Below are positions 617 through 31,372 of a stretch of DNA of 36,666 nt, piece by piece. How positions within the stretch are numbered: the stretch's first letter is position 1; every line of letters starts with the position of its first letter. The position numbers and the translations under genes are program-made. The stretch spans positions 1-36,666 of the forward strand of contig CAZHVH010000001.1 of assembly GCA_964535855.1 (NCBI GenBank), written 5' to 3'. The DNA comes from an uncultured bacterium. Lineage in GTDB: Bacteria > Poribacteria > WGA-4E > B28-G17. Below the pieces are notes generated by a model. The model saw only the letters and a list, made by a program, of their open reading frames with translations. It ran no database searches and was not told the DNA's origin.

Positions 617-3600
617 TCAATCTCCCCAACTTTCCCCGTGAAACTCAAGGGATAGGGGTAGCTTACTGCTATCAACCATCAAGATATACCCTTCCCCTGG
701 AGAGAGGAGGAAATTACTGGGAGAATCGGGAGGCAAGGAGGGATAATAAAACGTGATTTTAGGGGTGGGCTCGATCTTTATAACCTGCTCGATAGCCCCA
801 TTTGATATCCACACGAGGTCTGAAGCTCTTCTTACTCTTCGGTCATCGACGGGCAGGCCGAAAAGGAAAACCTTGGAGTTTATCAAAACGCTTCCGACCC
901 ATTTTCTGCCCTTAAGCGTAACTTCCGCCGGTTGGTTCATAACGACGATATATCCTCTTCCGCCTTCTACAGGCAGGTTATTGAGGGAGTCTGGTCCCAT
1001 AGATCGGGTATATGTGACGAACTTCTCCTGCTGTGAATCATAACATACTATCGCAACGCATGAAGGACCTATTCGATCGGTTAGATCGTCCAGACTCCTG
1101 AGCTCCGGATCGTTTACCGGTATACTTATCAGATTTAGCCCTCGTTTAAGTTTCAGTTTGAACGTATATTGATTTTTCAGAAGGAGTTCCAGTTTATAGG
1201 TTCCGATATTTCCCGCCCTATCGGTTGCCGTAAGTTCTATCTCTTTCTTGCCATCAGCCGCTAAATTTTCAGAGGAGATTTTAAATCTAAGCAGGAAATT
1301 TCCGGGTTCGACCTCCGAAAACTCAACGGGTTCAGATCTAGTGGTATCTAGAGGGCTTAAGTCGGCTTTGACATCGCATTCCAGCTCACATTTCGCTTTT
1401 ATCTCGATCTCATCACCGTTTTCAACCCTGTAGCGATTAACCTGTACACCGTAAATTTCGGGAGGAAGTGTATCGATGGAGATACGTTTCGAATAGGAAG
1501 CTACGTTGTCGAGAGGATCTGTCAAGCTGACCGTAAGGATAGCATTATACTCCTCTATCCCATCGCGCGGCGAAAAGGTGTAAGTATATAAGCAAGCCTC
1601 AGGAGTTTTTTCCTTCTCCACCATCTCCGTCTCCTCAATTATGCCGGGGCCTATCGAGAGTTTCACGCTAGAGTCCGGCTCCCCCTTGACCGTTATTTTG
1701 AGGGTTTCACCGCGTTTGATAACATCTTTATCCACTGAGACCTGGTATATCTCAGCGATCGCATCGATATTGACGATTCCCGTCCTTGTCTCGCTATTTC
1801 CATATTTATCGGTCAATGATACGCTTAATAGATCTCCAACAGCTTTATCTCCAGGTTTGACGGTATACGATCCGGAGTAACTGCCGGGGTGATCGGGATT
1901 TTCCTTAAGCGGGACATCCTGGACAACGTCCTTGATGGAGAAAGTTCCAGTGCAGCTAGGTTCAGCTTCAACCATAACGGACAGTTTCACTCCCGCCTTG
2001 GCTTTATCCGGAGATACCGTAATATCGCCGATCTGTACCACAGCATCTATCCATATTTTCCGGTCACTGGATTTGGTGGCTGTTTGCCCCGATTCATCGG
2101 TTAGAGTGACCGTCACATACTCACCGTCGACGTAGTCTCCCGCCTTAACCGTGTATTGCGCTGACCATATCCCGTTACTCTCGCGCAGTTCTCCCTGAAT
2201 GTCCTGACCGATTTGAAAGCTGCCGGATATAGCCTTGAATATATCCCTATTCAGGTGTGCTTTTATAAGTATGGTATCACCCGCAACGGCTGCATCCTCC
2301 TCCTCTGGTGATTGATGGATCACGCTTACCTCTACGTATTTGATCCGACTTCTATATCGAAATATGGCTGAGGCGATCGCCCCGGATTTACCGCCTCGGG
2401 CTATGAATCTGATATAATGGTTGTCGGGATAATCCTCGGATATCAGAGCGGAAAGTTTGAACATGCCGTTTTCATCAGCTTTGGCGGACAGCCGTTCACC
2501 GTCGAAGTCGATGGTGATCTCCTCCCCTGGATAGAACCAATCGCCGCTGAGATCAACTTGGGTTCCCAGGGTTCCCTCCCCTGGTGATACCATCAGACTG
2601 GGGTTAGAAGTTGTGATGGTTTTAGCGATTTCCTCCGTAAATCCGGAACCAGAGCCTTTGACTTTCACAGTTGTGCCGCTGATACCGGACGGAAGAACAC
2701 ATTCCGCCTTAAAGCTTCCCCTCTCATCTGTGGTTCCGTCGCTATCAATCCGAAGAGAAGTTCCATTCAGCTCAACTGAGATATCCTCTTGGGGACCAAA
2801 GCCTATCCCCTCAACGATTAGCTTTAGCTTTCTCTGGGAAACCTCTTTAATGATCGGCGAGTAGACCACGGTTACGGAAGATGAAAGTGTTCCATCGTCG
2901 GCTACGATAAGCGCTTCACCACCCGGCTGTTCATCCAGAATCAGAGATTTGGTGAATTTCCCACCTTCGGCATCAGCCTTAACCGTTTCAATCACCCCGT
3001 CCAGCCCAAGGGATATCTTAACAAGCCTTCCAGGCATAAATCCCTCACCGTGTAATTCTACCCGTTGTCCCGGAACTCCTTCGATCTGCCGAAGGTGTGT
3101 CTCATCCGGGGCTATGAAGTAAAGGGATGGTATCACGGTAAATCTGGCTTCATTTACCCCGTCCGTCACCACATATTCACCGCCAGATACCTGAGGAGGA
3201 ATCCTCATTATAGGATCACCGTTTGCATCATATCCGACGAACGAGAGATTGTAAGATCCGAATTTAAGATTGAAAGGATAGGTAGTTCCTTTAACCGTGA
3301 AGCTGCTACCTGGTTCGCCTCTATCCGGTATTAGCTCAAGTCTCTCAAGGGCGATTATGGGTTCTGGATAAGAGACAGGATATTTCGACTCAGACCCCGT
3401 AACGGTTATAAAGTTCTCTCTTTTTCTAAGCAGCTCATCGGTCAGGACGAAATTCGCTTCGAGACTTCCGTCATGAAGAGCCTTTACGGGTTCAATCGCA
3501 TCATCGACGAGCAAGCCACCAAATCTGATCTCTATCTCCTCACCGGGGACAAAACCGCTTCCATATATATAAAGCACATCCCCTGCTTGGGCGCTATATC

Positions 3601-6016
3601 CTAGGACGCGAAAACCTCTCCTTTCAATTTCCGCTCCTGTGATCTTCGGTAGAATTCTGAAGGGAAGGTATTTCGTCTCATCCCCTATCTCCACTTTTAA
3701 AACCTTATCCCCGAATTCCTGAGGTGGAATCGCTATGGGGAGGGAAAAACCACCGAACTCGTTGGCATTGCCTTCAAGCAGCAGCTTCTCGTATCCGGTT
3801 TTCCCAAGCGATATCCTGATATCGACGTAAGGTTGATATCCTGAGCCCATGACACTCACGATCTCGCCCGGGGCACCGGATTCCTTATCAACTCTCAGAG
3901 ATTCTAATAGCGTGAACTTAGCTTCCTTAACTTTCCTCCCGCTCTGGTATATAGTGATCCTTTTCTCACCTGCCCGAGGAATATCTTGAATGGTTGATGA
4001 AAGGGAGAAAAATCCCATCTCATCCGTTGATCCCGTCGCCAAAAGTCGGTTTAATCCTGCATCATCCTCTATATAAATACCTATAGCTTTTAAGGGTACA
4101 AACCCTGCGCCTTGAATTTTTAAAACACTTCCGTTCTCTGCCGATGAGGGTGAGATGCTGAGAAATCTTGTGTCATCGAGCTTAGATACGATGATTTTGC
4201 AGTCTGCTTTTCCCTCATCTTCCACCTCAGAAGCGATGACAGTAAAGGTCCCACTCGCTCCATCGTTCATAACGATAGAGGTGCGAAAAGATCCGTATCC
4301 ATCCGTCCTTACTTTCCTGTTAAATCTGGGTTGCTCCTCTTCAATATAAACATCCACATCTGAGTTAGGTGCAAACCCATTTCCTTCTATCGATATGAGA
4401 ATCCCTTCTACCTCTGCCGATATGGAGGGCACCAGGGTAAGCTCTTTGGTGACCTCCGATCTGAGCTGGAAACTAGTAGCTTCAACCTTCAATGTTTTAG
4501 GGCCCCTTGGCATGTTCGGAACGTTAAACCTCAAGATAAAGCTGCCGTCAGGCGGCACGATATACCGCCCAAAGCTTCCGTTTCCGAGATATTCCCTGTT
4601 CAGCGGGACCCCGTTGAAGTCAAAGCATGAGATGGAAGGGGAAAGGGCGTTAAGCTCCACGTCTATCAACCCGTTAGATGGAAAACCCTCGCATCTCAGC
4701 TCCATCTCCTCTCCCGGGTGAATTTGACCATCGGAAGGAAAGCCCGAAACTTTTGGAGTTGGAACATACCTGATCGATTCGACATCGGACAGACCGGATC
4801 TTTCCCCAATAGCCGACACGATGAGATCTGTCGGTTTGTTTTGTATGATCCATCCCTTTTCCAGGACGAAACTGGACCTGAATTCCCCCATCTCGTCCGC
4901 GACGATCGGTTTAATTTCCCTGGAGCCGATTCTGATTTCGACGATCTCACCAGGGGCAAAGGCTGTACCGGTTATCGAGAACTCCTGGCCTATTTCGCCG
5001 AACAGCGGGGTTATCTCGATCTGAGGTATTACCGTCAACGCGTTATCCGCTATATATATCAGGTTATCATCCTGGTATATCCACAGATCTTTCAACCCAC
5101 CCGGAAGTTTCGGCAGCGTTAAATCGGCGGAAACCTTTCCATATTCATCGCTGCTGAACAGCCCAAGGGATCTGCCTTCTGGGTAAATTTTAAGTTGGAA
5201 GCGGGGAGGAAATCCACATCCCTGCAGGGTAATCCGCCCTTCAGACTTGACATTGATCGGATCGACCGATCTCAGCCTTGGCTCTATCAGAAAGGAAGTG
5301 GTATATCTCCGTCCCGAGCTTCCCGTCAACTCCACATCCCTCAAACCGTAGGTGAAATCCGGAACGATAAATTCGAATTCCACCTCTCCAGTATCTGAGG
5401 CGATGATCGTGGCTGGAAACGTTGGAGGGCTTATATTGCCGATATGCAAGGAGATAATCTCTCCTGAAGCAAAACCGGTCGCCCGGCATGTAATTCTCTC
5501 ATCCGGCTTGCCATAGTACCTTTCCAGCGTCATACCGCCCCCCACGATAACCTCGCTCCATCTCGCCCTAAGTCCAAGGAAATTCGGGACCGGTAATCCC
5601 CTAGAATCGGTTAACTGTATTGACCCATCCTTGAATCTAAGATCGGTTTTTCCACTTCGTATAGCTCGAAAATTCAGCGTAACAAGGTGAATCATCCCGT
5701 AGGCTTCCGAGCTCTCCTCATGATCGAAAGCGACCGTGACGGATATGAGATCTCCAGTTGGATAAACGCGTATATTGTTCGGAAATATCTGTGGTTGATA
5801 TTCGATGATACCAGAATCAAACTCCAGGGTGAAGCTGACGGCGAGAAGTTTATCCGCGACGGCCTCGACGCTCAGCGTGAAAAGTTCACCCTCGTTCAAT
5901 ATACCCTTAGAGGGTATGAGGAGAAGCTCCGGGGTTAGAGCTTCCACGTGTAGGGGGAAAACCATGAAAAACAGCAGGGAAAGGAAGGCTAGAATATAAG
6001 TCCGCCTTTGAATCAT
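617..6016 (-). CDS. Giant (1799 aa) secreted multidomain surface protein: signal peptide, cohesin-like domain, ~12 IPT/TIG-like repeats, 4 Ig-like modules, 2 tandem C-terminal modules
   Basis: Uninterrupted 5.4-kb ORF whose ATG lies 23 nt after the flgM stop. Sec-type signal MIQRRTYILAFLSLLFFMVFPLHVEA|L. Residues ~27-160 look cohesin-like (LFTLSVEAVADKLLAVSFTLEFDSGIIEY ... LVTLNFRAIRSGKTDLRF). Repeats carry a G-x-G-F/Y-x-P signature (ITLQGCGFPP, FSITGTAFAPGE, ISIEGNGFAPNS, LKIQGAGFVPLK, VSVMGSGYQPYV, LYIYGSGFVPGE, VELHGEGFMPGR, LIVEGIGFGPQE, VDLSGDWFYPGE). Four modules end Y-T-V-K-x-G-D ... L-T-D-x-x-G-N ... I-D. Confidence 0.85.
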   Translation of the reverse strand: MIQRRTYILAFLSLLFFMVFPLHVEALTPELLLIPSKGILNEGELFTLSVEAVADKLLAVSFTLEFDSGIIEYQPQIFPNNIRVYPTGDLISVTVAFDHEESSEAYGMIHLVTLNFRAIRSGKTDLRFKDGSIQLTDSRGLPVPNFLGLRARWSEVIVGGGMTLERYYGKPDERITCRATGFASGEIISLHIGNISPPTFPATIIASDTGEVEFEFIVPDFTYGLRDVELTGSSGRRYTTSFLIEPRLRSVDPINVKSEGRITLQGCGFPPRFQLKIYPEGRSLGLFSSDEYGKVSADLTLPKLPGGLKDLWIYQDDNLIYIADNALTVIPQIEITPLFGEIGQEFSITGTAFAPGEIVEIRIGSREIKPIVADEMGEFRSSFVLEKGWIIQNKPTDLIVSAIGERSGLSDVESIRYVPTPKVSGFPSDGQIHPGEEMELRCEGFPSNGLIDVELNALSPSISCFDFNGVPLNREYLGNGSFGRYIVPPDGSFILRFNVPNMPRGPKTLKVEATSFQLRSEVTKELTLVPSISAEVEGILISIEGNGFAPNSDVDVYIEEEQPRFNRKVRTDGYGSFRTSIVMNDGASGTFTVIASEVEDEGKADCKIIVSKLDDTRFLSISPSSAENGSVLKIQGAGFVPLKAIGIYIEDDAGLNRLLATGSTDEMGFFSLSSTIQDIPRAGEKRITIYQSGRKVKEAKFTLLESLRVDKESGAPGEIVSVMGSGYQPYVDIRISLGKTGYEKLLLEGNANEFGGFSLPIAIPPQEFGDKVLKVEIGDETKYLPFRILPKITGAEIERRGFRVLGYSAQAGDVLYIYGSGFVPGEEIEIRFGGLLVDDAIEPVKALHDGSLEANFVLTDELLRKRENFITVTGSESKYPVSYPEPIIALERLELIPDRGEPGSSFTVKGTTYPFNLKFGSYNLSFVGYDANGDPIMRIPPQVSGGEYVVTDGVNEARFTVIPSLYFIAPDETHLRQIEGVPGQRVELHGEGFMPGRLVKISLGLDGVIETVKADAEGGKFTKSLILDEQPGGEALIVADDGTLSSSVTVVYSPIIKEVSQRKLKLIVEGIGFGPQEDISVELNGTSLRIDSDGTTDERGSFKAECVLPSGISGTTVKVKGSGSGFTEEIAKTITTSNPSLMVSPGEGTLGTQVDLSGDWFYPGEEITIDFDGERLSAKADENGMFKLSALISEDYPDNHYIRFIARGGKSGAIASAIFRYRSRIKYVEVSVIHQSPEEEDAAVAGDTILIKAHLNRDIFKAISGSFQIGQDIQGELRESNGIWSAQYTVKAGDYVDGEYVTVTLTDESGQTATKSSDRKIWIDAVVQIGDITVSPDKAKAGVKLSVMVEAEPSCTGTFSIKDVVQDVPLKENPDHPGSYSGSYTVKPGDKAVGDLLSVSLTDKYGNSETRTGIVNIDAIAEIYQVSVDKDVIKRGETLKITVKGEPDSSVKLSIGPGIIEETEMVEKEKTPEACLYTYTFSPRDGIEEYNAILTVSLTDPLDNVASYSKRISIDTLPPEIYGVQVNRYRVENGDEIEIKAKCELECDVKADLSPLDTTRSEPVEFSEVEPGNFLLRFKISSENLAADGKKEIELTATDRAGNIGTYKLELLLKNQYTFKLKLKRGLNLISIPVNDPELRSLDDLTDRIGPSCVAIVCYDSQQEKFVTYTRSMGPDSLNNLPVEGGRGYIVVMNQPAEVTLKGRKWVGSVLINSKVFLFGLPVDDRRVRRASDLVWISNGAIEQVIKIEPTPKITFYYPSLPPDSPSNFLLSPGEGYILMVDSSKLPLSLEFHGESWGD

Positions 6017-6039
6017 CTCTCTCTTCTCTTCGGAAATGA

Positions 6040-6333
6040 CTATATCTCATCGAGCAACAATGCCTTGAGCAACTCTTCTGCAACTTGAGATAAGGGGACG
6101 TTGTACTCACCCTGTTCTATTCTCCTGGCGAGATCATCCACCTTTCCAGATCGGATATCCGGGATCTCTTTAAGCTTGCCCATTGCTTTAGCTACGAGTT
6201 TACCTTCTTCTGATAAAACCGCTATATCTGATCGGAAATCCTCAGACTCACCGCCCCTTTGGATGTTCCTCTCCCGGGATGAAGGGTGGGTCTCCACGCC
6301 TAAGATCTTATAGATGCTGGGTAATATCTTCAT
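6040..6333 (-). CDS. flgM: Anti-sigma-28 factor FlgM
   Basis: 97 aa. DIAVLSEEGKLVAKAMGKLKEIPDIRSGKVDDLARRIEQGEYNVPLSQVAEELL matches the FlgM C-terminal signature. The ATG overlaps the fliD stop (ATGA at 6330..6333). Confidence 0.82.
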   Translation of the reverse strand: MKILPSIYKILGVETHPSSRERNIQRGGESEDFRSDIAVLSEEGKLVAKAMGKLKEIPDIRSGKVDDLARRIEQGEYNVPLSQVAEELLKALLLDEI

Positions 6334-8768
6334 CTTGATCTCCCTCCACCTATACTCATCAGGGAGATAATCTGTAGGTTAAAGAGCTGCTGGGATAAGA
6401 AACTGGACTGAGTCTGCAAATTACCTAGAGCCTCCTCGAGTTTTGAATATTGCTCCATTAGCTTTTGTCTTGTCTCTTCAATTCGTCTGTCGAACTCCTC
6501 CAGTTTGTTATTCGTTTCGGATATTCTTCTGTCGATTATCTGGATTCTGCCGTCGATTACTCCCGTGTAAACCTGGGTATATCCCGAGAGGATACTCTCG
6601 ATTTTCTCGGCTATACCTTGAGTTGAGCTACTGGTAGTCGCGAATATCTCCGCTACCCCTTCGGGGTCTTTCTGGATGGCCTCCCTCAATTTGCTATAAT
6701 CCCTTATTGTTATATCTAAACCGCGTAAGATCTGATCCAAAGTTACCGTTCCGGCAGAGGGTTTTCCTATTCCGATGCTGATCAGGCTGTTCTTTCCCGA
6801 GGGAAGTCCCTCAACCTGTTCCATCATCGCCTGATTGAGACGCCGAACGAGAGCTTTAAGAGTCGGATCTCCTCGAAGGGCATTGGTATTGATAGATTCC
6901 TCAGTCCCTTCCGAGGTCTGTTGCTGAGACACTAAAGGTATAAAGACCTTCTCACGTATATAGCTTATGGTCTCGTTATAGGAATCTATGAAATCCTGAA
7001 TTGCCTGAACGGCTTCATCCACATCAGCTTCAATCTCGATCTTAACTGTCGTTCCTGGAGCGCTTTTTTGAAGTGAGAGCGTAACACCGGGAATGGCGGA
7101 GTCAATGATATTCGAATTCGAAATCACCTCATTCCCATTTACCGTGATCTTGGCGTCCTGACCGGGTTCGACCTGACTTTGATTGAGCTTAAGCTTTGAA
7201 AGCAAATTACCGTCTCCATCTTGGAGGTTAATCTTCGGACTGCCCGTCTTTTCAGATACCAGATTGAATTTATCCTCGTTTATATCGTAATAAGCATTGA
7301 CACTCGCGTCGGAGGAATTGATCTTGATTATCAGATCCTGAAGGGTATCAGATGGATCGAAATCTATCCGAGTTCCGTTTATGTTGAAGTAACCAGGGCT
7401 TGTTATGCCGAAAAGGATCTGTAGAGTCCTGGAAGGGTTGATAGCCCCGAGCTTAAACTCGCTTTCAACAATCACCTCCGAACCGTTATTCACCTGATCG
7501 GCCTGAGAGAGACCAACGACATCTAGAAAGTTGGAGGTATCCCCTGAGCTCCCTACGTTTATCCAGGGCGTTTCGCCATCCTGACTTAACACTATCTTAC
7601 CGTCTTGATATGCAGCGGTAACACCTGTGGTATTAGTGACGCTGTTTATCTTTCCCAGCACATCATCTATCGTGTCGCTCAAATCGACAAATAAACTTGT
7701 TCCATTAATCGAAAAGGTTCCGGTGTTAACGTTCCATTTGAACGGCGTCTGATCGCCTTGGTCGATGAAATGAAGAGCATCTGTATCGCTGAATTCGCCA
7801 TCCTTACCGATATATCTGCTTTTCAAGGTTGAGCTTGTCAATCCTATAACGTCGAGGAAGTCGGTCTTACCCGCGAGGGAAGCGGAATTTCCCCCTTGTG
7901 GGGCGGAGATCGTAAGGGTCTGTGTTGAATCGTCATATGAGACACTTAATCCGGCATTTTGCAATTGATCTTTCAGATTCTCCAGTGTGGTGTCAGAATC
8001 GATGAAGATATCGTTTCCATTTACCGATAAAATGCCGATTCTAATGCCGAGGTTAATCACTCTATCGGTTAAAGCACCGGTGATCTGATATGAATTACCG
8101 GGGCGTAATTTCAAATCGCCAATGCCGTCGGTATCATCCAGGAGCTGAAGCAGGTTGGAATTTCCGAAGAACTGGATTTTATAATCCTGACCAAGAGCGA
8201 TCTGAAGATATTTATAGCTGTTCTCCGTTTCAACGCTCGCCTGGAGGATGTTCGAATCACCAACGGCTGAGTTTATAGCATTTATAATTCCCTGAATGTT
8301 CGTTGTATCAGTGCCGCCTACCTCGACGGCATATTTGCCTTGGAGGGTACCATCCGGATTGGAAATTTGGAAGTATATTTTCCCTTTATGGATTTTAACA
8401 AGCCCTTCTGTCCCATCAAGAGGTGTCCCTAACTCATCAGAGGACTCGACCCTGGAGGGGGTTGCCAATTGATTGACGACAACTTCATAGGTTCCTGTGG
8501 GAGCTTGGGAGGAGATAGATGAAATATTGACTATGCTTTCATCGGAGGAAGTTCCTATACGGGATGTAAAGGTGGAATGAAACTTTAACCCGCTTGCTTT
8601 CGACTGAAGAGCTAACAATCTAGCTTTTATATCCTGTAGTATAACGCGCTGGGACTGAAGATCGGTTAATTTAGATTCTATTCGCGTTCTAGGCTGTCTT
8701 TGGATCTCTATAAGCTGATCGATAATTTCCTGAGTATTCAACCCTGATATCAAACCATATACGTTCAT
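6330..8768 (-). CDS. fliD: Flagellar filament cap protein FliD (enlarged, 812 aa)
   Basis: N-terminal GLISGLNTQEIIDQLIEIQRQPRTRIESKLTDLQSQ and C-terminal IIDRRISETNNKLEEFDRRIEETRQKLMEQYSKLEEALGNLQTQSSFLSQQL are the conserved FliD terminal helices. The central part holds 3-4 Flagellin_IN-like repeats. GAGGTG lies 7 nt before the ATG. Confidence 0.9.
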   Translation of the reverse strand: MNVYGLISGLNTQEIIDQLIEIQRQPRTRIESKLTDLQSQRVILQDIKARLLALQSKASGLKFHSTFTSRIGTSSDESIVNISSISSQAPTGTYEVVVNQLATPSRVESSDELGTPLDGTEGLVKIHKGKIYFQISNPDGTLQGKYAVEVGGTDTTNIQGIINAINSAVGDSNILQASVETENSYKYLQIALGQDYKIQFFGNSNLLQLLDDTDGIGDLKLRPGNSYQITGALTDRVINLGIRIGILSVNGNDIFIDSDTTLENLKDQLQNAGLSVSYDDSTQTLTISAPQGGNSASLAGKTDFLDVIGLTSSTLKSRYIGKDGEFSDTDALHFIDQGDQTPFKWNVNTGTFSINGTSLFVDLSDTIDDVLGKINSVTNTTGVTAAYQDGKIVLSQDGETPWINVGSSGDTSNFLDVVGLSQADQVNNGSEVIVESEFKLGAINPSRTLQILFGITSPGYFNINGTRIDFDPSDTLQDLIIKINSSDASVNAYYDINEDKFNLVSEKTGSPKINLQDGDGNLLSKLKLNQSQVEPGQDAKITVNGNEVISNSNIIDSAIPGVTLSLQKSAPGTTVKIEIEADVDEAVQAIQDFIDSYNETISYIREKVFIPLVSQQQTSEGTEESINTNALRGDPTLKALVRRLNQAMMEQVEGLPSGKNSLISIGIGKPSAGTVTLDQILRGLDITIRDYSKLREAIQKDPEGVAEIFATTSSSTQGIAEKIESILSGYTQVYTGVIDGRIQIIDRRISETNNKLEEFDRRIEETRQKLMEQYSKLEEALGNLQTQSSFLSQQLFNLQIISLMSIGGGRSR

Positions 8769-8801
8769 AACCCTACACCTCAGATGAAGTCCTAGTAAGG
8801 A

Positions 8802-8828
8802 TTATCGACAGCAAGATGCTAAAGTTTA
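8802..8828 (-). promoter_or_regulatory. Sigma-28 (FliA)-type promoter upstream of fliD
   Basis: The minus strand reads TAAACTTT-AGCATCTTGCT-GTCGATAA, against the consensus TAAAGTTT-N11-GCCGATAA (equivalently TAAA-N15-GCCGATAA). The -10 element ends 33 nt before the fliD ATG. The -35 element starts 4 nt after the upstream stop codon. Confidence 0.7.
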
Positions 8829-8831
8829 GCA

Positions 8832-9719
8832 CTAGCTGAACCATGTCCAGAATTTCCACCATCGTCTCGAAGCCTTGGAGCGTAATCTGTTAAGTTGTCT
8901 AGTCTGCTCCTCAAGCTGGCGGGTTAATTGCATGATTATGGCGTCCGAACGCCTCCTGGCCTCCTCAAGTTGAGCCTCCCTTTGGTGAGCTATCCTGAGC
9001 TCCTCACGAAGCCTAGCGACTTCCTCCCTTAGCATGTTTATCTGCTGGATCAGAGGATCCTCCACCTCCGGCATTCCGAGTTCATGAAGTTCAATCTGTC
9101 TGCTGAGGACGTAGCTGACGATTTTATCCTGTAAGCTAAAATCGGTGAATTTAAAGTTTACCCCGAGTCCGAAAACATTGCTTTCCGGTCTCATTCTAAA
9201 GATCCTAATCACATTGGCTGGTATCGTAAATCTACCTTTATCAGACAATTCGAAATCGAGGTTTATCTCCGCGCCCTTAGGAATTTCACCTTCACTTTCT
9301 AGCCCCAGCGATATCAACATTCCCGATCCGCTGACGTTCAATGCTGTCCCCTCATAGTTCCGCTTGCCGTACTCAGTTTGAATTTTCACAGGGATATCGA
9401 CAAGCACCCTCGCGAAATTGCGCATAGGTATGGGGTTTTCCTCATCTAAAGCGACGACCAACATGTCATAACCGGTAACCGGATCAGGTTCTATAAACTG
9501 AGCTATGGTTCTATAAGTTCTATTTTCCCCGCTGTTGGTCAACTCAGTTATCATAACCTCTGTTCCCTTCTTTATGGCGATCGAATTGCCATCCTCATCT
9601 ATAGGAGGGATGATCTTAGCTATGGTGGAATCCAAGTACCTTATCCGGCTTTCGTACTCCGGTATCCCCTCTATATTCACTTTTATCCTTCTATTGATCT
9701 TGATACTTCTTTTAGGCAT
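8832..9719 (-). CDS. YcgR-like PilZ-domain c-di-GMP receptor with C-terminal coiled coil and Trp-rich tail
   Basis: PilZ motifs RxxxR (RNFAR) and N-x-S-x-x-G (NVSGSG) are present. I prefer ATG 9719, which is preceded by GGAGGGGG. The ORF-track start at 9746 is a TTG. The C-terminus is a heptad-rich REEVARLREELRIAHQREAQLEEARRR... ending RRWWKFWTWFS. Confidence 0.75.
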   Translation of the reverse strand: MPKRSIKINRRIKVNIEGIPEYESRIRYLDSTIAKIIPPIDEDGNSIAIKKGTEVMITELTNSGENRTYRTIAQFIEPDPVTGYDMLVVALDEENPIPMRNFARVLVDIPVKIQTEYGKRNYEGTALNVSGSGMLISLGLESEGEIPKGAEINLDFELSDKGRFTIPANVIRIFRMRPESNVFGLGVNFKFTDFSLQDKIVSYVLSRQIELHELGMPEVEDPLIQQINMLREEVARLREELRIAHQREAQLEEARRRSDAIIMQLTRQLEEQTRQLNRLRSKASRRWWKFWTWFS

Positions 9720-10695
9720 CGGATTTATCCCCCTCCGTATTTTCAACCTTTCTGAGGTTTCTAAGCTTGAGGGTTAACTCGACCCATCCGCGAGTCAAAT
9801 TGAGGGCCTTAGCGATTTGATCGGCGGAGTAGCCGGAGTCGAATAGACCGTATATCTCTCGCGCCTTAGAGGCGCTATCAGAGATGGATTCACCTAGGTT
9901 GACCTCCGAGGAAGCCTCTGAAGGCTTTATCGGAACTGATTTTTCCTCCGGTTTCTCCCCCTCAATTTCATCTTTATGTTTTAGCTCCTCTATTTCTGCT
10001 ATCAACCTCGCCTCCTGAGCTCTCATCTCTTCCAGGTTTTCCCTGGCCTGTTCAGCCTCCGATCTGGCGATCTCGAGCTCATGTTGAAGCTGTCCTATCC
10101 TCTCCTTTATCTGTTCGGCCTTAGCCTTTGACTCATCCGCTTCTCTTTTAGCCGCTTCTATCTCCGCTATGATTCGCGCCTCGGCAGCTAAAACTTCGCC
10201 TAAGTTTCTCTTGGCATCCTCTGCGACTTTCATTTCCCTATCCCGCTCAGCTTCTATCGCCTTAAGCCTCTGATTTGCGCGAATAAGATCCGCCCTTGCC
10301 TCCTCTGTTTTTCTCCTGAACTCCTCCACTCTCGGTTTCAATCGCTCTATCTCACGCTCTATATTTCTTTTCGAATCAGCTATCACATCGAGCTCTGCCG
10401 AAAGTCTCGCCTCGAGCATTTTAAGCTCCTCGAGCCTTTTTTTAAGCTCCTCCTCCTCGTATCGAGCTTGATTTAGACTTTCCTCAAGCCGTCTGTTTTC
10501 ATCTCGAACAACATCGATCTGCGCTTTCAGCTCATCTATCTTGTCCATCTCCGATTCCAAGATCGCTCTGAGTTTCGTCCGTTCGATTTTCAAGCTATCC
10601 AGATCATTTTGATTTTTCTCCGCCATTCTTCTGGACAGTTCCGATTGAACCTTAAGTTCTTCGAAATTCATCCTTTCGATCTCATTTCTATTCAC
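9712..10695 (-). CDS. Coiled-coil protein with a C-terminal HTH-like module (resembles DUF2802/DUF6115-type flagellar-locus tails)
   Basis: 327 aa with a GTG start after GAGGTGG. About 250 aa are E/R/K/A-rich heptads with the internal repeat EAR(I/L)IAEIE. The tail is AREIYGLFDSGYSADQIAKALNLTRGWVELTLKL. Confidence 0.6.
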   Translation of the reverse strand: MNRNEIERMNFEELKVQSELSRRMAEKNQNDLDSLKIERTKLRAILESEMDKIDELKAQIDVVRDENRRLEESLNQARYEEEELKKRLEELKMLEARLSAELDVIADSKRNIEREIERLKPRVEEFRRKTEEARADLIRANQRLKAIEAERDREMKVAEDAKRNLGEVLAAEARIIAEIEAAKREADESKAKAEQIKERIGQLQHELEIARSEAEQARENLEEMRAQEARLIAEIEELKHKDEIEGEKPEEKSVPIKPSEASSEVNLGESISDSASKAREIYGLFDSGYSADQIAKALNLTRGWVELTLKLRNLRKVENTEGDKSDA

Positions 10696-10704
10696 GTTTC
10701 CACC

Positions 10705-11031
10705 TCAGACCTTAACATCCAAGATATGGTGCTCAGGATCTATAAAACCCATATGCTCTTCGGCTTCCGTTTCAAATCGGCTTGAGCTTCGGTAATATCG
10801 GTTTTCACTATCTCTCCTTCTATTATGTCTTCCATGCTCCTGGGTTTGAATCGGCTCATGTTCCGGTCTCTCTGGGTGTTGCACTTGGATTTGGCGCTGT
10901 CGTATAACCTGTTGTAACTTCACGGCGAACTCATGTTGTTGATTAACCAAGCCTTGCTGATATGCTTCCTGAACCCTTTGGACTTCAAGCGTTCTAGCCA
11001 AAACGCTTTGGGTGCCTATCGGATTCGGCAT
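10705..11031 (-). CDS. Small Q/H/R/E-rich hypothetical protein
   Basis: 108 aa. The ATG has an AAGGGAG Shine-Dalgarno 9 nt upstream. It overlaps the fliA 3' end by 38 nt. I recognise no family. Confidence 0.45.
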   Translation of the reverse strand: MPNPIGTQSVLARTLEVQRVQEAYQQGLVNQQHEFAVKLQQVIRQRQIQVQHPERPEHEPIQTQEHGRHNRRRDSENRYYRSSSRFETEAEEHMGFIDPEHHILDVKV

Positions 11032-11833
11032 CTTGAATCACTCCCTTTGTTTCGCTTATGAAGGTCCTCAGCCTGCCTCTTATCCTAAGCACGGCCTTCG
11101 TATGTATTTGAGAGACTCTGGACTCCGATACTTTTAAAACGGCCCCTATCTCTTTCAAGGTTAGCCCCTCGTAGTAGTAGAGGGTTATGACCAGTCTTTC
11201 CCTCTCAGGTAGCTTCTCTATCGATTCGATCAACACTTTTTTCAGTTCTTTCATCTCCAACTGCTGAAGTGGGTCGGGTCTGGTATCTCGTATCGTATCA
11301 ACTATCTCTATCGGCTCATCATCTTCGCCGCTAGTGACGGTCTGATATAAGGAAAGTATGGTAACATGACTTACTTGATCGACGAGGTCGTGAAATTGCT
11401 CAAGCGATATAGACAGGTAATCAGCCATTTCCCTGTCGGAAGCGGGTCTACCCAGGGTATTTTCAAGTTGAGCATATGCCTTCTCAAGCTCGATCTGTTT
11501 ATGATATGTGGTGCGAGGCACCCATCCCAATTTTTTGGATTCGTCCAATATAGCGCCCTTTATTCTTTTAAGGGCAAAGGAGACAAAGCTAGTTCCATAA
11601 TCGAGCTGATATCTGTCGACGGCCTCTATCAGACCGGTGATTCCACAGCTGTAGACGTCGTCGAAATCCAAGGTAGGGGGAGGTGAGATCATCATCCTAT
11701 CGATGGCGTACTTAACGAGACCAACGTACTTTAAGATTAGCTCTTCCCGAGCTTCCCTGTCGCCATCCTTTTTAAACTTCAACCATAGCTTTTTTTCATC
11801 TTCTTCCAACCGATCATACCAGCGTGACATCAT
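10994..11833 (-). CDS. fliA: Flagellar sigma factor FliA (sigma-28, SigD/WhiG family)
   Basis: Region 2 is GITGLIEAVDRYQLDYGTSFVSFALKRIKGAILDE. Region 4 is LPERERLVITLYYYEGLTLKEIGAVLKVSESRVSQIHTKAVLRIR. The start forms an ATGA overlap with the upstream ORF. Confidence 0.9.
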   Translation of the reverse strand: MMSRWYDRLEEDEKKLWLKFKKDGDREAREELILKYVGLVKYAIDRMMISPPPTLDFDDVYSCGITGLIEAVDRYQLDYGTSFVSFALKRIKGAILDESKKLGWVPRTTYHKQIELEKAYAQLENTLGRPASDREMADYLSISLEQFHDLVDQVSHVTILSLYQTVTSGEDDEPIEIVDTIRDTRPDPLQQLEMKELKKVLIESIEKLPERERLVITLYYYEGLTLKEIGAVLKVSESRVSQIHTKAVLRIRGRLRTFISETKGVIQDAESDRHPKRFG

Positions 11834-12158: not shown

Positions 12159-12896
12159 TTATATTCCTCCAGCTTCTCTCTCTAGGAGCTGGTGAAAGAG
12201 CACACATTTCTGTATGTTCCTTCGCCTTTCCTCTCCCTCAGGGCCGAGGAAATTTTGCTCCTCATCGAATTCTATACCTATGAAATCGAAGGTTACAGCT
12301 TCTACCTCCCTCTGATATTTTCGTATGACCGTCCCGAATAACTCCATCTCATCGGAATAATCGAACTCACGCTTGGCTCCAAGTCCAGCTCTCTTAAGGC
12401 CTACAGGCAGGCTGAAACTCACGACAACATGATCACCCAGATTTGCCTCCTGAGGCGATTCGAGCTCTACCCTGAGGAGTATCCCTCCGGCGCTAAGGTT
12501 AACACATCTGACATCATCATAGACCCTAGGGGGCTGGAAGCTGGTGGTAAGCTTCAATGATTGGAAGGGAGATGTGATGGCCTGCCTTACGAATCTTCGA
12601 ACCCTCATGGGGGGATCTGGGGGTTCCATGATGGTGAGAGGTTCTCCTGTACTACGATCGGTGGTCTGTTCGCGAACCTTGGTGGTATAGGTAGTGGCGG
12701 GTCCTCCCTCAGTCTGTTCAAAGATCATTATCGTCCTTCCGGTTTCCAGGTGGAGGATGCTGCCACTTTCGCTGATGGGCGATTCGGCCACTATGTAGTC
12801 CGGCTTTATATCGAGTATACGGCTTGGATACTCCATTATACGAGGGCCTGTCCTGAGCTGAAGCGTAACCCTTCTTTCTATTTGTCGCTTAGCCAT
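12159..12896 (-). CDS. YcgR-like PilZ-domain c-di-GMP receptor
   Basis: RxxxR (RRFVR) and N-x-S-x-x-G (NLSAGG) motifs are present. The preferred start is ATG 12896, in a TAATG overlap with the flhG stop and preceded by AAGGAGAGGG. The ORF track extends to 13001. Confidence 0.75.
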   Translation of the reverse strand: MAKRQIERRVTLQLRTGPRIMEYPSRILDIKPDYIVAESPISESGSILHLETGRTIMIFEQTEGGPATTYTTKVREQTTDRSTGEPLTIMEPPDPPMRVRRFVRQAITSPFQSLKLTTSFQPPRVYDDVRCVNLSAGGILLRVELESPQEANLGDHVVVSFSLPVGLKRAGLGAKREFDYSDEMELFGTVIRKYQREVEAVTFDFIGIEFDEEQNFLGPEGEERRRNIQKCVLFHQLLEREAGGI

Positions 12897-13771
12897 TATC
12901 CCTCTCCTTGGTTTTGGATTTCGATCAAAAGATTGAAGAACTTGAGTATAACTTCGCTCACACCAATCTGCCCCATTGGAGGTCGGTTCGCATATATCCA
13001 ATCAACGATCTCCCTGATGTTCTTTGAGGCCGGCGAATCAGGAGAAACCTGCAAAAACGGCAATTTCCTCTCGCAGGCGGCGTTAACGCGCTGATCCAAC
13101 GGCACATATCCTGCCGTGCTGAGGTCGAAATTCAGGAACTTCCTGGCTGTGCTGGTTATGCTCTCGGCCACCAATAGCGCTTGATTTGGTCCTTCAGCCA
13201 TATTGACCAACAACGCAATATCGGTCTCTCTAAAACCATCATTGCTGTTCAACATCGACTTTATGGTCGCATAGCATTGGGCCCTCGCTTCAGGCGCAGG
13301 GGTAACCACGAACATAAGCTCCGGACACACCATAGAGAGAACAACGGACTGAAATGAGGATAACGTGCCTAGATCTATAAGCACGAACGGGTAATCCCTC
13401 TCGATTCTCTGGAAGTACTTCCTGATCCTTTCACTCACCCACGTTCGGTCTTCGATAGCATCCAGATCTATCTCGCCGAGATCTATCACTTTCACTTTCT
13501 CGATCGATGTAACAGCGGGAGAAGCTCTCAGACTATATTCGCCTTTTATCAGCCGCTCTGCCACGGTAACATCAGGGAGCTCCTCGACCCCCATTATAGG
13601 GGAGATTCCCTTTGAAGAAGCATTGATTATTATCACATCTCCTATCCTCTCTGTCAACCCGGCGGCTATATTGTAGATTATAGTTGACAACCCCACCTTT
13701 TCCTTCGCTCCTATTACGCCTAAGACCCTTTTGGCTACCAACTGCTTAAGCTTATCGGCTTGGCTTCTCAT
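12896..13771 (-). CDS. flhG: MinD/ParA-family flagellar number regulator FlhG (YlxH) with a degenerate Walker A
   Basis: The gene lies directly after flhF. VLGVIGAKEKVGLSTIIYNIAAGL aligns with the MinD/FlhG segment xxVxSGKGGVGKTTxxxNLAxxL. The Walker B-like DYPFVLIDLG and a C-terminal amphipathic helix VILKFFNLLIEI are present. Confidence 0.75.
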   Translation of the reverse strand: MRSQADKLKQLVAKRVLGVIGAKEKVGLSTIIYNIAAGLTERIGDVIIINASSKGISPIMGVEELPDVTVAERLIKGEYSLRASPAVTSIEKVKVIDLGEIDLDAIEDRTWVSERIRKYFQRIERDYPFVLIDLGTLSSFQSVVLSMVCPELMFVVTPAPEARAQCYATIKSMLNSNDGFRETDIALLVNMAEGPNQALLVAESITSTARKFLNFDLSTAGYVPLDQRVNAACERKLPFLQVSPDSPASKNIREIVDWIYANRPPMGQIGVSEVILKFFNLLIEIQNQGEG

Positions 13772-23088: not shown

Positions 23089-23928
23089 TCAGTCCGCTGT
23101 CCCCGGAATCTCAGCAGCTCTTTCGGCGATGCCGGCTGCTGCTTCTACCCTGTTTCGCACCTCGTCCCTCTGTGCCAGAGGAACGTAGAACAACAGTTTA
23201 TCCAATACTCTCGAGGGAGATTCCCCGTTGGCTATAGAAGTAAGACCCTCTATGATCATCTCTCTGAAATCCCCCTCCTTGGCAAGCTGTTCGGTCATCC
23301 TAGAGGCTATCGGGAACATGACGAGATTGGCCAGCAGGACACCGTAGAAGGTAGTGATAAGCGCCAGCGCCATGTTCGGACCGAGCTGACTTGGATCATC
23401 CAACTTTCCAAGCATCAGGATCAGGCCTATAAGGGTTCCCAACATGCCGAACGCCGGGGCGTAGCTGCCCCATCTTCTAAACACCTCTTGATTATCCTTT
23501 TGGGCTTTCTTATCTGACTCGATATTAACCTGCAGTAGTTCGGCAGCGGCATCAGGATCAGGTGTATTTGTAACCGTATCCACAGCTTGCCTGAAAAAAG
23601 GATCGGTCACGTTTTCAGCTGCTGCCTCCAACCCCGTTAATCCTTCTCTTCTGGCTGCCATGGCCAGCCTGTACATGATTTCTAAGGTCTCGGCGTAGGG
23701 CAGAGGTGTTGGAAAGAAAACGCTCTTAAGGCTTTTAAAACTGGCGAGAAGCTGCCGGGGCGAGAAGCTTCCTACTGTAGCAAAGAAGGAGCCGAAGAAC
23801 ACCACCAGGAAAGAGGGACCGTTTATGAAGGTGCTTGGCACACCTTGGTTAAGGTATATTCCTATAAACACCACAACGATCCCTAAAATTATCGCCAGTC
23901 CTGTATTTAAACCCATAAAGCTCCCCAT
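23089..23928 (-). CDS. motA: Stator protein MotA
   Basis: 279 aa with 4 TM helices. Conserved block YAPAFGMLGTLIGLILML ... ALITTFYGVLLANLVMFPIA. Confidence 0.9.
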   Translation of the reverse strand: MGSFMGLNTGLAIILGIVVVFIGIYLNQGVPSTFINGPSFLVVFFGSFFATVGSFSPRQLLASFKSLKSVFFPTPLPYAETLEIMYRLAMAARREGLTGLEAAAENVTDPFFRQAVDTVTNTPDPDAAAELLQVNIESDKKAQKDNQEVFRRWGSYAPAFGMLGTLIGLILMLGKLDDPSQLGPNMALALITTFYGVLLANLVMFPIASRMTEQLAKEGDFREMIIEGLTSIANGESPSRVLDKLLFYVPLAQRDEVRNRVEAAAGIAERAAEIPGTAD

Positions 23929-23944
23929 TATTCACCTCCGCTTA

Positions 23945-24145
23945 TTATTTCATACCCAGTTCGGGGTTGTGAACCAACCTTTTGTACTCTATAACCTTCC
24001 TGATTAACATACCAGGTGAATCGTTAACCCTCAATTTAGAACCATCGATGAATGTGATGATGGTCGAAAGCCCCTCCTCAACATATTTTATGAGGTCAGC
24101 GTTGACCACCATCTTTCTACCGTTAACGCCTATGACCTCTATCAT
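23945..24145 (-). CDS. flbD: Flagellar protein FlbD
   Basis: 66 aa. MIEVIGVNGRKMVVNADLIKYVEE..TIITFIDGSKLRVNDSP matches the FlbD family. It lies directly upstream of motA. Confidence 0.85.
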   Translation of the reverse strand: MIEVIGVNGRKMVVNADLIKYVEEGLSTIITFIDGSKLRVNDSPGMLIRKVIEYKRLVHNPELGMK

Positions 24146-24165
24146 ACTAATTTCACCACCTTATT

Positions 24166-24879
24166 TTAAGAACCATTGCTTCCGGAGGATTCAACTCTTA
24201 ACAGACCGACCTGTAGCTTAGCAGCTTGGGACTTATTCTTGAAATTGGAAAGTATCTCAAGGGCTGTAGCCTTATCCATATTCCTGAGGATATCGAGAAC
24301 CAGCTTCTCATTGCCCTCAGTCACCATCTGCGATAGCATCTCGGCTGCTTTGGAAGATCGCATATCTTCATACCCTTTTGCCAGCTTTTTCAGCTCCTGT
24401 TGGGAGATAACCTGTGAGGTTTGAGGTTGGGGTTTCATCTTCTCCAGCTCACTCATTTTACTCTGTATCTGCCTATTGATGTTCTGTATCTTCTGCTCCA
24501 ACGCCTTTAGCTGGTCCATCTTCTGGGTGATCTTTTGTTCTATATCGTCCAGCTCCTTTAGCTTTTGTTCTATACGCGTTTGAAGCGATCTGAGTCTGAA
24601 CCTTAAAGCCTCTTCAGCATCTTCTTTCATCTTGATTTTCTCTCTTTGCTTCTTCAAGGTCTCGATTATATCAGCGACATCCTCAACGGAACCGCCCTTC
24701 TTGGAACCACCACTCGCTTCCGAGACGGATGGAGCTTGAGGTTGAACCTCCGGATTTGAGCCTTTACCTTTGTGGATGGAACTTTTTATTCCGCCTACGT
24801 CTCCCAGATAAATCAGGGAGCCGGCAGCTATTATAAGTATAGCAGCCGCTATAATGATTATGGACTTAACCCCCATCAC
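24166..24879 (-). CDS. MotE/YlxF-family flagellar protein (TM helix, coiled coil, MgtE_N-like domain)
   Basis: N-terminal TM helix IIIIAAAILIIAAGSLIYL, then a Q/K/E coiled coil. The C-terminus is KAAEMLSQM...LVLDILRNMDKATALEILSNF. The gene follows fliJ, as ylxF does in Bacillus-type operons. Confidence 0.65.
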   Translation of the reverse strand: MMGVKSIIIIAAAILIIAAGSLIYLGDVGGIKSSIHKGKGSNPEVQPQAPSVSEASGGSKKGGSVEDVADIIETLKKQREKIKMKEDAEEALRFRLRSLQTRIEQKLKELDDIEQKITQKMDQLKALEQKIQNINRQIQSKMSELEKMKPQPQTSQVISQQELKKLAKGYEDMRSSKAAEMLSQMVTEGNEKLVLDILRNMDKATALEILSNFKNKSQAAKLQVGLLRVESSGSNGS

Positions 24880-30524: not shown

Positions 30525-30926
30525 TTATCTCATGACCATATCGAGCCTTTGGTATTTAGCAGACAGCAACCTTGTCGTTATCACGTAATACATTGAGTTT
30601 TTATATAGCTCCGCCATTTCCCTGTCTATATCGACATTGTTTTTATCGTTCCGCATAGATGTATCGTTTTCCCGAAACAGCCTTGGCTTAACATCTTGTA
30701 TTCCGGGAGTCCCAATCGGGATATGCTTAGGGCGCGTGGTTATGCCTCTGAAAACGCCCTTGTCCAAGGCAAGGCGAAGCTGATGTTTAAAATCAACATC
30801 TAGTCTTTTATACCTCGGCGTATCAACGTTGGCTATGTTATGAGCCAACGCCTGATGCCGCAATGAAGCCCCGTCTAAAGCCTTTTTCAGGACGAGAAAC
30901 GTTTCGCTGTTAAATACCTTTAGCAT
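30525..30926 (-). CDS. flgB: Proximal rod protein FlgB
   Basis: 133 aa. It carries the rod N-terminal motif LRHQALAHNIANVDTPRYKRLDVDF. Confidence 0.85.
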   Translation of the reverse strand: MLKVFNSETFLVLKKALDGASLRHQALAHNIANVDTPRYKRLDVDFKHQLRLALDKGVFRGITTRPKHIPIGTPGIQDVKPRLFRENDTSMRNDKNNVDIDREMAELYKNSMYYVITTRLLSAKYQRLDMVMR

Positions 30927-30931
30927 CTTTC

Positions 30932-31372
30932 TTACCCCCTCTTGTCGAGAAACCTGCTGTTAGACCTTATTTCACCTTTGATGTAGGCCTCACCAGCTCT
31001 GGCGATATCCGTAAGCCCTGCACCGGTTTTCCTCAAAACCGACATCATCTTCATCAATCTATCCTCCGCCCTCCGATCCAGGCTTAATATTGAATTGATA
31101 AGTTTCTCCTGATCCTTAATAAGGGAAACCACTCGCTCGGAAAGCTCTGAAGGGAGTTTTGAACGCAGTTTGTTCCAACTTGCCTTTAAGTCTTTGATGT
31201 CTTCATCTATCTGGGACAATCGGTCGATAAGCTCGGCTCTCTCGCTCATCAGAGACATAAACCCTTCAACATCAGAGCGGTCGAGGGCGGAAAGTTGATC
31301 TTCAGCTATGCTTAGGATCCGCTCGTATATCTCGTTTTCACTGCGAAGAGAGGCTAGAAGCTTGGATATCAC
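30932..31372 (-). CDS. flgN: FlgN-family-like export chaperone (tentative)
   Basis: 146 aa and all-helical. LLASLRSENEIYERILSIAEDQLSALDRSDVEGFMSLMSERAELIDRLSQI fits the FlgN pattern. The GTG start follows GGGGGGAAGAG. It overlaps the upstream gene by 35 nt. Confidence 0.5.
   Translation of the reverse strand: MISKLLASLRSENEIYERILSIAEDQLSALDRSDVEGFMSLMSERAELIDRLSQIDEDIKDLKASWNKLRSKLPSELSERVVSLIKDQEKLINSILSLDRRAEDRLMKMMSVLRKTGAGLTDIARAGEAYIKGEIRSNSRFLDKRG

Follow-up and report, generated by a model that had tools for sequence, protein, structure and literature searches.

A predicted giant surface protein with a cohesin-like domain encoded behind fliD and flgM in a flagellar gene array of an uncultured poribacterium

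The locus described here raises the question of why a 5.4-kb non-flagellar gene should stand directly behind the genes for the flagellar filament cap (fliD) and the anti-sigma-28 factor (flgM). It lies on a stretch of 36,666 nucleotides (nt) from an uncultured bacterium (Poribacteria; WGA-4E; B28-G17; GenBank assembly GCA_964535855.1, contig CAZHVH010000001.1), hereafter the window, which carries a single long co-directional flagellar array with fliD, flgM and a giant open reading frame (ORF) at its end, all three on the minus strand (Table 1). With moderate confidence, and from sequence alone, we read the giant gene as encoding a fibrillar adhesin or scaffold that was recruited into the sigma-28 late operon of fliD and flgM. 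No described case of an adhesin- or scaffold-like gene embedded in a fliD-flgM transcript was found in the literature. Although unusual, the link has precedents in kind, since non-flagellar cargo in a sigma-28 late operon is already known.

The putative unit opens with a sigma-28 (FliA)-type promoter. This begins 3 nt past the stop codon of the preceding PilZ gene, and 33 nt lie between its end and the start codon of fliD. It matches the consensus TAAAGTTT-N11-GCCGATAA at 14/16 positions, and direct reading of the letters agreed on both match and distance with an earlier, sequence-only reading of this DNA. At two or fewer mismatches the site (8828-8802) was the only one in the 36.7 kb, where 0.01 would be expected from shuffled sequences, and a relaxed scan (TAAA-N15-16-NCGAYA) found no second site on the coding strand of the window. 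Between PilZ and fliD, three divergent relatives had the same box, namely L001 (TAAATTTC-N11-GTCGATAA), L005 (TAAAGCTT-N11-GTCGATAA) and L011 (TAAAGATT-N11-GTCGACAA), and L005 had a further copy upstream of its flagellin gene. When the promoters of the four lineages were aligned, the CTAAA and GTCGAnAAT cores were invariant and the spacer was variable, which is the footprint expected of a functional two-box promoter. The sigma-28 assignment is well supported in silico, and the factor reading the fliD promoter is presumably FliA, the gene for which lies in the same co-directional flagellar array, 2 kb upstream of the site.

The arrangement of the three genes suggests that they are transcribed together. 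The fliD stop and flgM start codons share 4 bases (ATGA, 6333-6330), the last base of the flgM stop codon (TAG) is at 6040, and the ATG of the giant gene, at 6016, is the first possible start codon after an in-frame stop. The 23-nt spacer between flgM and the giant gene is too short to hold both a terminator and a promoter; no terminator-like site was predicted there, the junction RNA folded no better than shuffles (z = -0.95), and the relaxed scan found no additional sigma-28-like site at the junction. Sigma-70-like matches in the region numbered 22 against 15.3 +/- 4.1 in shuffles, not clearly above expectation. Orthologous flgM-giant spacers measured 19 nt in L001, where the spacer carries GGAGG, and 47 nt in L011. 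From the shared strand, the -4 nt overlap, the 23-nt spacer and the lack of a predicted terminator or sigma-28 site in between, we infer that fliD, flgM and the giant gene are co-transcribed, and from the promoter ahead of fliD that they are sigma-28-dependent. The sequence-only reading had described the ATGA overlap, the 23 nt between the flgM stop and the start of the giant ORF, the purine-rich Shine-Dalgarno run ahead of that ORF, and a junction free of hairpins and recognisable promoters, and all of these descriptions held. Equally sound was its remark that no fliS, fliT, flgK, flgL or flagellin gene follows: none was found after the giant ORF among the window ORFs and by family searches, and the genes downstream are a 101-amino acid (aa) ORF without a family match followed by convergent Wzz and Poly_export genes.

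The strongest argument for the membership of the giant gene in this unit is the conservation of gene order across divergent relatives. The order fliD-flgM-giant was found in three lineages (the window, L001 and L011), among which the giant proteins are 26-61% identical. The closest homologue (P0002, 61% identity) occurs in L001/L002 behind the same PilZ-fliD-flgM genes, and the homologue in L011 (P0196; assembly GCA_024278235.1), at 26% identity, stands behind flhF-flhG-PilZ-x-fliA-x-coiled coil-PilZ-fliD-flgM. For comparison, FliA identity to the window was 82% in L001, 49% in L011 and 50% in L005/L006, and the window FliD is 66% identical to its L001 ortholog. The genes after the giant gene differ in all three lineages, so that the conserved unit ends with it. 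Recovery of the homologues depended on the method used. A word-indexed protein search with the full giant protein as query returned one homologue only, and a chimeric query joining the N-terminal domain to the C-terminal pair returned no match; an exhaustive HMMER search with a 94-column profile of the C-terminal module recovered four more colinear full-length homologues, at ~25% identity, which the word-indexed search had missed.

The predicted protein follows the plan of fibrillar adhesins, with a signal peptide, a tandem immunoglobulin (Ig)-like stalk and a terminal non-stalk domain, and its surface location and adhesin or scaffold role are suggested by this architecture. Its N-terminus has a basic n-region and a hydrophobic core ending in VEA|LT, which points to Sec export with cleavage after VEA, and a hydrophobic N-terminus was found in 6/6 members of the giant family. 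Export as a flagellar type III substrate was considered and rejected, as the N-terminus is a classical n-h-c Sec signal.

The domain behind the signal peptide appears to be cohesin-like by fold. Its sole Pfam match was Cohesin (PF00963; E = 0.09), and a search of the PDB with its sequence profile found no cohesin. A two-sequence AlphaFold2 (AF2) model (predicted local distance difference test score, pLDDT, 73.2; predicted template modelling score, pTM, 0.70) took the form of a nine-stranded beta-sandwich, and when this model was searched against the PDB with Foldseek the top 30 matches were all cohesins (probability 1.0, E down to 2e-4, TM 0.5-0.65), type I and type II cohesins superposing on it at TM ~0.6. 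Two orthologs passed the Pfam Cohesin cutoff (P0141, 27.8 bits; P0124, 53.4 bits). The cohesin-like N-terminus proposed in the sequence-only reading is therefore upheld by the fold and by the orthologs, and not by the sequence of the window domain itself, which falls below that cutoff.

The stalk comprises roughly 16-17 Ig-like domains in two stretches. The repeats of the first matched the NCBIfam GxPGS Ig-like domain (NF058592) with a score, added up across the repeats, of 83.1 bits (cutoff 45; E = 1.1e-23), and their profile also matched the repeats of the biofilm-associated protein Bap (7dm0, E = 8e-4). On single repeats, Pfam TIG gave a weak match in 2/20 (best E = 0.048), and the ortholog P0141 reached a TIG sum of 26.9 bits against a cutoff of 20.9. 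The count of about 12 IPT/TIG-like repeats given in the sequence-only reading was right as to number and position, but the TIG cutoff was not reached in the window protein, and the name of GxPGS-type Ig-like domains suits these repeats better. Four Ig-like modules had been proposed to follow them, in agreement with the internal repeats found here and with a Pfam Big_13 match over the whole protein (28.9 bits, cutoff 27), single modules giving weak matches.

At the C-terminus the two uncharacterised modules of the sequence-only reading were recovered as a tandem pair, for which profile searches found no Pfam match and no PDB sequence match. At E <= 1e-3, exhaustive HMMER searching located the module in 377 representative proteins, in two adjacent copies in nearly all of them and, in 69/149 cases, at the extreme C-terminus. 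The pair also occurs on subtilase, GH39 and BNR/FG-GAP proteins and on multi-cohesin proteins; one to three cohesin-like domains accompany it in P0192, P0164, P0208 and P0124, and in P0134 and P0161 a sorting domain of the type IX secretion system (T9SS) comes after it. Because many other secreted proteins share the pair, it most likely serves in surface anchoring or sorting. The sole named relative of the C-terminal part of the giant protein came from Candidatus Poribacteria. An undescribed module of this breadth merits a family definition and a structure.

Several observations, on the protein as well as on the locus, weigh against a fibrillar adhesin or scaffold under flagellar control. The window domain scored 13.4 bits against the Pfam Cohesin cutoff of 24.1; Pfam TIG (PF01833) did not reach its threshold and gave no whole-protein match at E <= 0.01; the AF2 model of the C-terminal pair failed (pLDDT 37); and Pfam and NCBIfam searches found no T9SS C-terminal domain (Por_Secre_tail or CHU_C) in the giant protein, for which reason its candidacy as T9SS cargo was rejected. 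A regular-expression search for a dockerin-like D-x-N-x-D-G-type motif found none in any ORF of five loci (window, L001, L004, L009 and L011). On the side of the locus, there is no terminator between the PilZ gene and fliD, which means that read-through from the fliA operon may contribute to transcription. The sister lineage L005/L006 has the same fliA...PilZ-fliD-flgM array and neither a giant gene nor a remnant of one after flgM, where small ORFs, flagellin, flaG and fliS are found instead. Lastly, three distant full-length homologues (L009, L012 and L013) directly follow a gene for a ComEA-like helix-hairpin-helix protein and have neither flagellar genes nor a sigma-28 box in their surroundings, which implies that the giant family is not intrinsically flagellar. 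The linkage that the sequence-only reading had wished to see surveyed in relatives is thus kept in three lineages, and is missing both from L005/L006 and from the surroundings of the distant homologues.

It could be supposed from these last points that the adjacency is neutral, a rearrangement having put the giant gene behind flgM, where a weak promoter of its own within flgM or fliD would regulate it independently of the flagellum. The comEA-linked homologues and the lineage without the gene would fit such a history, as would a truncated epimerase remnant downstream of the giant gene, which hints at past rearrangement, and a weak sigma-70-like match inside fliD at 6571-6544. The excess of such matches over shuffles is, however, not a clear one, the flgM-giant junction has neither room for a terminator nor a predicted one, and the order with its 19-47 nt spacers has been kept in three lineages in which identity falls to 26% for the giant protein and 49% for FliA. 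Since tight spacing was kept across such deep divergence, this explanation is weakened, and we consider it unlikely.

The homologues in the non-flagellar context form a second conserved pairing for the giant family. At L009 9505-15361, L012 7517-13244 and L013 7404-12938, each follows a ComEA-like HHH_3 gene in whose product the segment RPEWFLGEPTF is conserved, and in L012 the two genes overlap.

The distribution of the linkage was also examined in metagenomes by means of a FliA profile. The best 80 loci were kept (FliA 42-49% identical), and 10 kb was examined around each; PilZ, fliD, flgM or the giant gene was found within that distance of FliA in 0/80 of these best matches, and a scan of the metagenomes with a PilZ profile gave no match. 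Taken with the lineage that has no giant gene and the non-flagellar setting of the distant homologues, these FliA-anchored loci without the array indicate that the giant family is older than its link to the flagellum and does not depend on that link, which is a derived feature of a small uncultured clade. In a scan of GTDB genomes, the nearest FliD (36% identity) belonged to a Zixibacteria metagenome-assembled genome (MAG), at a flagellin-fliD-fliS-flgN-flgM locus without a giant gene; Hydrogenedentota-type FliD loci had fliD-fliS only. Downstream of fliD in the Zixibacteria MAG (L004, OY760907.1, 9995-13641) come fliS, then a FlgN-like gene, then flgM, so that fliD and flgM are linked, if less closely, beyond the clade as well; the arrangement in the window looks like a fliD-fliS-flgN-flgM block minus fliS and flgN.

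The cohesin-like domain invites comparison with cellulosomes. On that account the tip would recruit dockerin-bearing proteins encoded elsewhere, or other proteins carrying the C-terminal pair, the pair would fix scaffold and enzymes to one surface, and sigma-28 timing would couple enzyme display to motility. Besides the fold itself, it would accommodate the one to three cohesin-like domains in other proteins with the C-terminal pair, the attachment of that pair to subtilase, GH39 and BNR/FG-GAP proteins, and glycan-related genes in the window (CBM9 and 3-keto-disaccharide hydrolase-like). The giant protein, though, has a single cohesin-like module, and no dockerin-like calcium-binding motif was detected in the ORFs of the five loci searched, so that the dockerin-bearing partner envisaged in the sequence-only reading was not encountered there. 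Cohesin-like modules are, moreover, reportedly common outside cellulosomes. As a whole this account seems to us rather improbable, but it is compatible with the adhesin or scaffold reading. Compared with cellulosomal cohesins, the window domain shares the nine-stranded beta-sandwich and differs in its sub-cutoff Pfam score, in standing singly, in the lack of a dockerin nearby and in the lack of an S-layer homology (SLH) anchor.

Fibrillar adhesins have a signal peptide and a long stalk of repeated Ig-like domains, with terminal regions for binding and for anchoring (PMC8286594), and the giant protein shares both this plan and, through its repeat profile, the similarity to the Bap family given above. 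It differs in that a cohesin-like tip takes the place of a known adhesive domain, the C-terminal tandem module is undescribed, and the protein has no LPXTG motif, type V secretion system (T5SS) barrel, type I secretion system (T1SS) signal or T9SS C-terminal domain.

A more direct association with the flagellum would make the giant protein a structural accessory, such as a sheath, filament coat or cap-binding component docking on the large FliD or on flagellin. Its gene is directly linked to fliD, and FliD measures 701-824 aa in the three giant-bearing lineages against 608 aa in L005, which has no giant gene. But the Sec signal argues against export via the flagellar channel, orthologs occur without flagellar neighbours, the architecture is that of a generic fibrillar adhesin, and Pfam and NCBIfam searches found no homology to known sheath or filament proteins; such a role we regard as very unlikely.

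For the adhesin or scaffold reading, the following sequence of events can be proposed. The sigma-28 promoter at the end of the array would drive a three-gene fliD-flgM-giant transcript. Completion of the hook-basal body would allow FlgM to be exported, FliA would thereby be freed, and the giant protein would then be made; because flgM belongs to the same transcript, output would be expected to rise only after FlgM export. This timing is borrowed by analogy from the Salmonella and E. coli model. Once exported by the Sec route, the protein would present an N-terminal cohesin-like binding tip on an Ig-like stalk, with the C-terminal pair providing anchoring or sorting, and flagellated cells would co-deploy a long surface fibre, for example for attachment to particles or partners reached by swimming. 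A co-deployed fibre for attachment or partner recruitment is the most economical reading of the locus. A bolder version, to which we give little credence, is that the sigma-28/FlgM checkpoint times a cellulosome-like surface system whose cohesin-like tip binds either the C-terminal tandem module or the enlarged FliD or flagellin. In the first case the module would be a dockerin analogue and head-to-tail fibres could form; in the second the flagellum would be an adhesive or enzyme-bearing organelle.

In Salmonella and E. coli, fliD and flgM lie behind FliA promoters of the TAAA-N15-GCCGATAA type, so that the anti-sigma gene is inside the regulon it controls. The window resembles their late (class 3) fliDST and flgMN operons in that fliD and flgM also follow a FliA-type promoter (14/16 positions), and differs in that the two genes form one unit with overlapping codons, without fliS, fliT or flgN, to which the giant gene is appended. 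Some adhesins and secreted enzymes are under the control of flagellar regulons, but as a rule the control is indirect and their genes lie elsewhere. In Vibrio cholerae the gene for a giant repeat adhesin, frhA, is regulated in class 4 of the flagellar hierarchy and depends on FliA, among other members of that hierarchy, for its expression (PMC6890996). The likeness to the window lies in a giant repeat adhesin linked to flagellar regulation, a link that is a prediction in the present case. FrhA is, however, a type I-secreted repeats-in-toxin (RTX) protein, encoded away from the flagellar genes and regulated via the flagellum-regulated diguanylate cyclase CdgD, whereas the giant protein of the window has a Sec signal with cohesin-like and Ig-like domains and is encoded inside a fliD-flgM unit. 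A second parallel is found in Bacillus subtilis, where SigD reportedly controls secreted autolysins (PMC3865298). These too are Sec-exported non-flagellar proteins under a flagellar sigma factor (PMC3865298), but they are enzymes encoded in separate operons, and not a giant repeat protein predicted to be co-transcribed with fliD and flgM.

The locus places a giant adhesin- or scaffold-like gene with the filament cap and anti-sigma genes, in an arrangement that has survived deep divergence, and its analysis delineates a family of proteins of ~1650-1800 aa with a cohesin-like tip. If expression follows gene order, cells would make the surface fibre only after finishing a hook-basal body, and an uncultured lineage, probably a particle-associated degrader of glycans, would have a simple means of coupling attachment to swimming.

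Table 1. Positions, within the window, of the features discussed in the text.
Feature	Position	Strand	Description
Sigma-28 (FliA)-type promoter	8802..8828	-	TAAACTTT-N11-GTCGATAA; full site TAAACTTTagcatcttgctGTCGATAA
fliD	6330..8768	-	812 aa; filament cap; Pfam FliD_N 8.5e-22, FliD_C 3.5e-48, Flagellin_IN 4.9e-11
flgM	6040..6333	-	97 aa; anti-sigma-28 factor; Pfam FlgM 6.1e-13, 49 bits (cutoff 25)
flgM-giant spacer	6017..6039	-	23 nt; purine-rich, Shine-Dalgarno-like run; tcatttccgaagagaagagagag
Giant ORF	617..6016	-	1799 aa, 5.4 kb; interpreted as an exported protein resembling a fibrillar adhesin or scaffold
Signal peptide, Sec-type (predicted)	5939..6016	-	Residues 1-26; basic n-region (RR), hydrophobic core YILAFLSLLFFMVFPL, then VEA|LT
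Cohesin-like beta-sandwich domain (predicted)	5513..5938	-	Residues 27-168
Ig-like stalk repeats	2417..5524	-	Residues ~165-1200; 12-13 repeats of ~88 aa (~10 detected, 2-3 divergent)
Big_13-like Ig modules	1157..2329	-	Residues ~1230-1620; ~4 modules of ~95 aa (three strong and one weak at 1265-1620)
C-terminal tandem pair	620..1165	-	Residues 1618-1799; copies at 1628-1695 and 1717-1783; module ~90 aa
PilZ-domain gene	8832..9746	-	Pfam PilZ 6.5e-11; upstream neighbour of the sigma-28-type promoter, conserved in all four lineages
fliA	10994..11833	-	NCBIfam TIGR02479 FliA_WhiG 225.5 bits (cutoff 189.6); Pfam Sigma70 r2, r3 and r4

The remainder of the array runs, in order, from a FlgN-like ORF and one rod-like ORF through fliE, fliF, fliG, fliH, fliI, fliJ and a coiled-coil ORF to motA, motB, fliL, fliM, fliN, fliO, fliP, fliQ, fliR, flhB, flhA, flhF and a MinD-like flhG, followed by a YcgR-like PilZ gene, a 125-aa ORF, fliA, a 108-aa ORF, a 327-aa coiled-coil protein and a second PilZ gene, after which come fliD, flgM and the giant gene. 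At 0.46-0.50, the giant gene has the same G+C content as the other genes of the cluster, and a recent foreign insertion was rejected as its origin on this ground. The FliD of the window is unusually long, its Flagellin_IN motifs falling in a large insert. Two PilZ proteins are encoded inside the array (8832-9746 and 12159-13001, minus strand), and the first has a coiled-coil tail with a terminal WWKFW motif that was invariant in 4/4 lineages when aligned.

Beyond the giant gene, a short ORF at 345-473 on the plus strand begins MNVLITGGAGF, as in the Rossmann N-terminus of an NAD-dependent epimerase or short-chain dehydrogenase/reductase (SDR), and stops after ~42 codons. It may be the truncated remnant of a gene convergent with the giant gene, and hints at past rearrangement at the end of the operon. 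In L005, which has no cohesin-tipped giant gene, a 3658-aa He_PIG/Big_9 repeat protein is encoded from 16475 onward, downstream of flagellin, flaG, fliS and a 130-aa ORF. It was considered as a relative of the giant protein and rejected as unrelated, and is a second, independent giant Ig-repeat protein beside late flagellar genes.

Hook genes sit between fliJ and motA in many flagellar clusters. In the corresponding interval of the window (23928-24879) no flgD, flgE or fliK was found, and a 237-aa coiled-coil ORF (24166-24879) and a 238-nt gap lie there instead. Before fliE the usual flgB-flgC pair was not evident, the place being taken by one rod-like ORF only (30525-30926, a weak Flg_bb_rod match), and the ORF preceding it (30932-31372) scored as FlgN/FliT-like.

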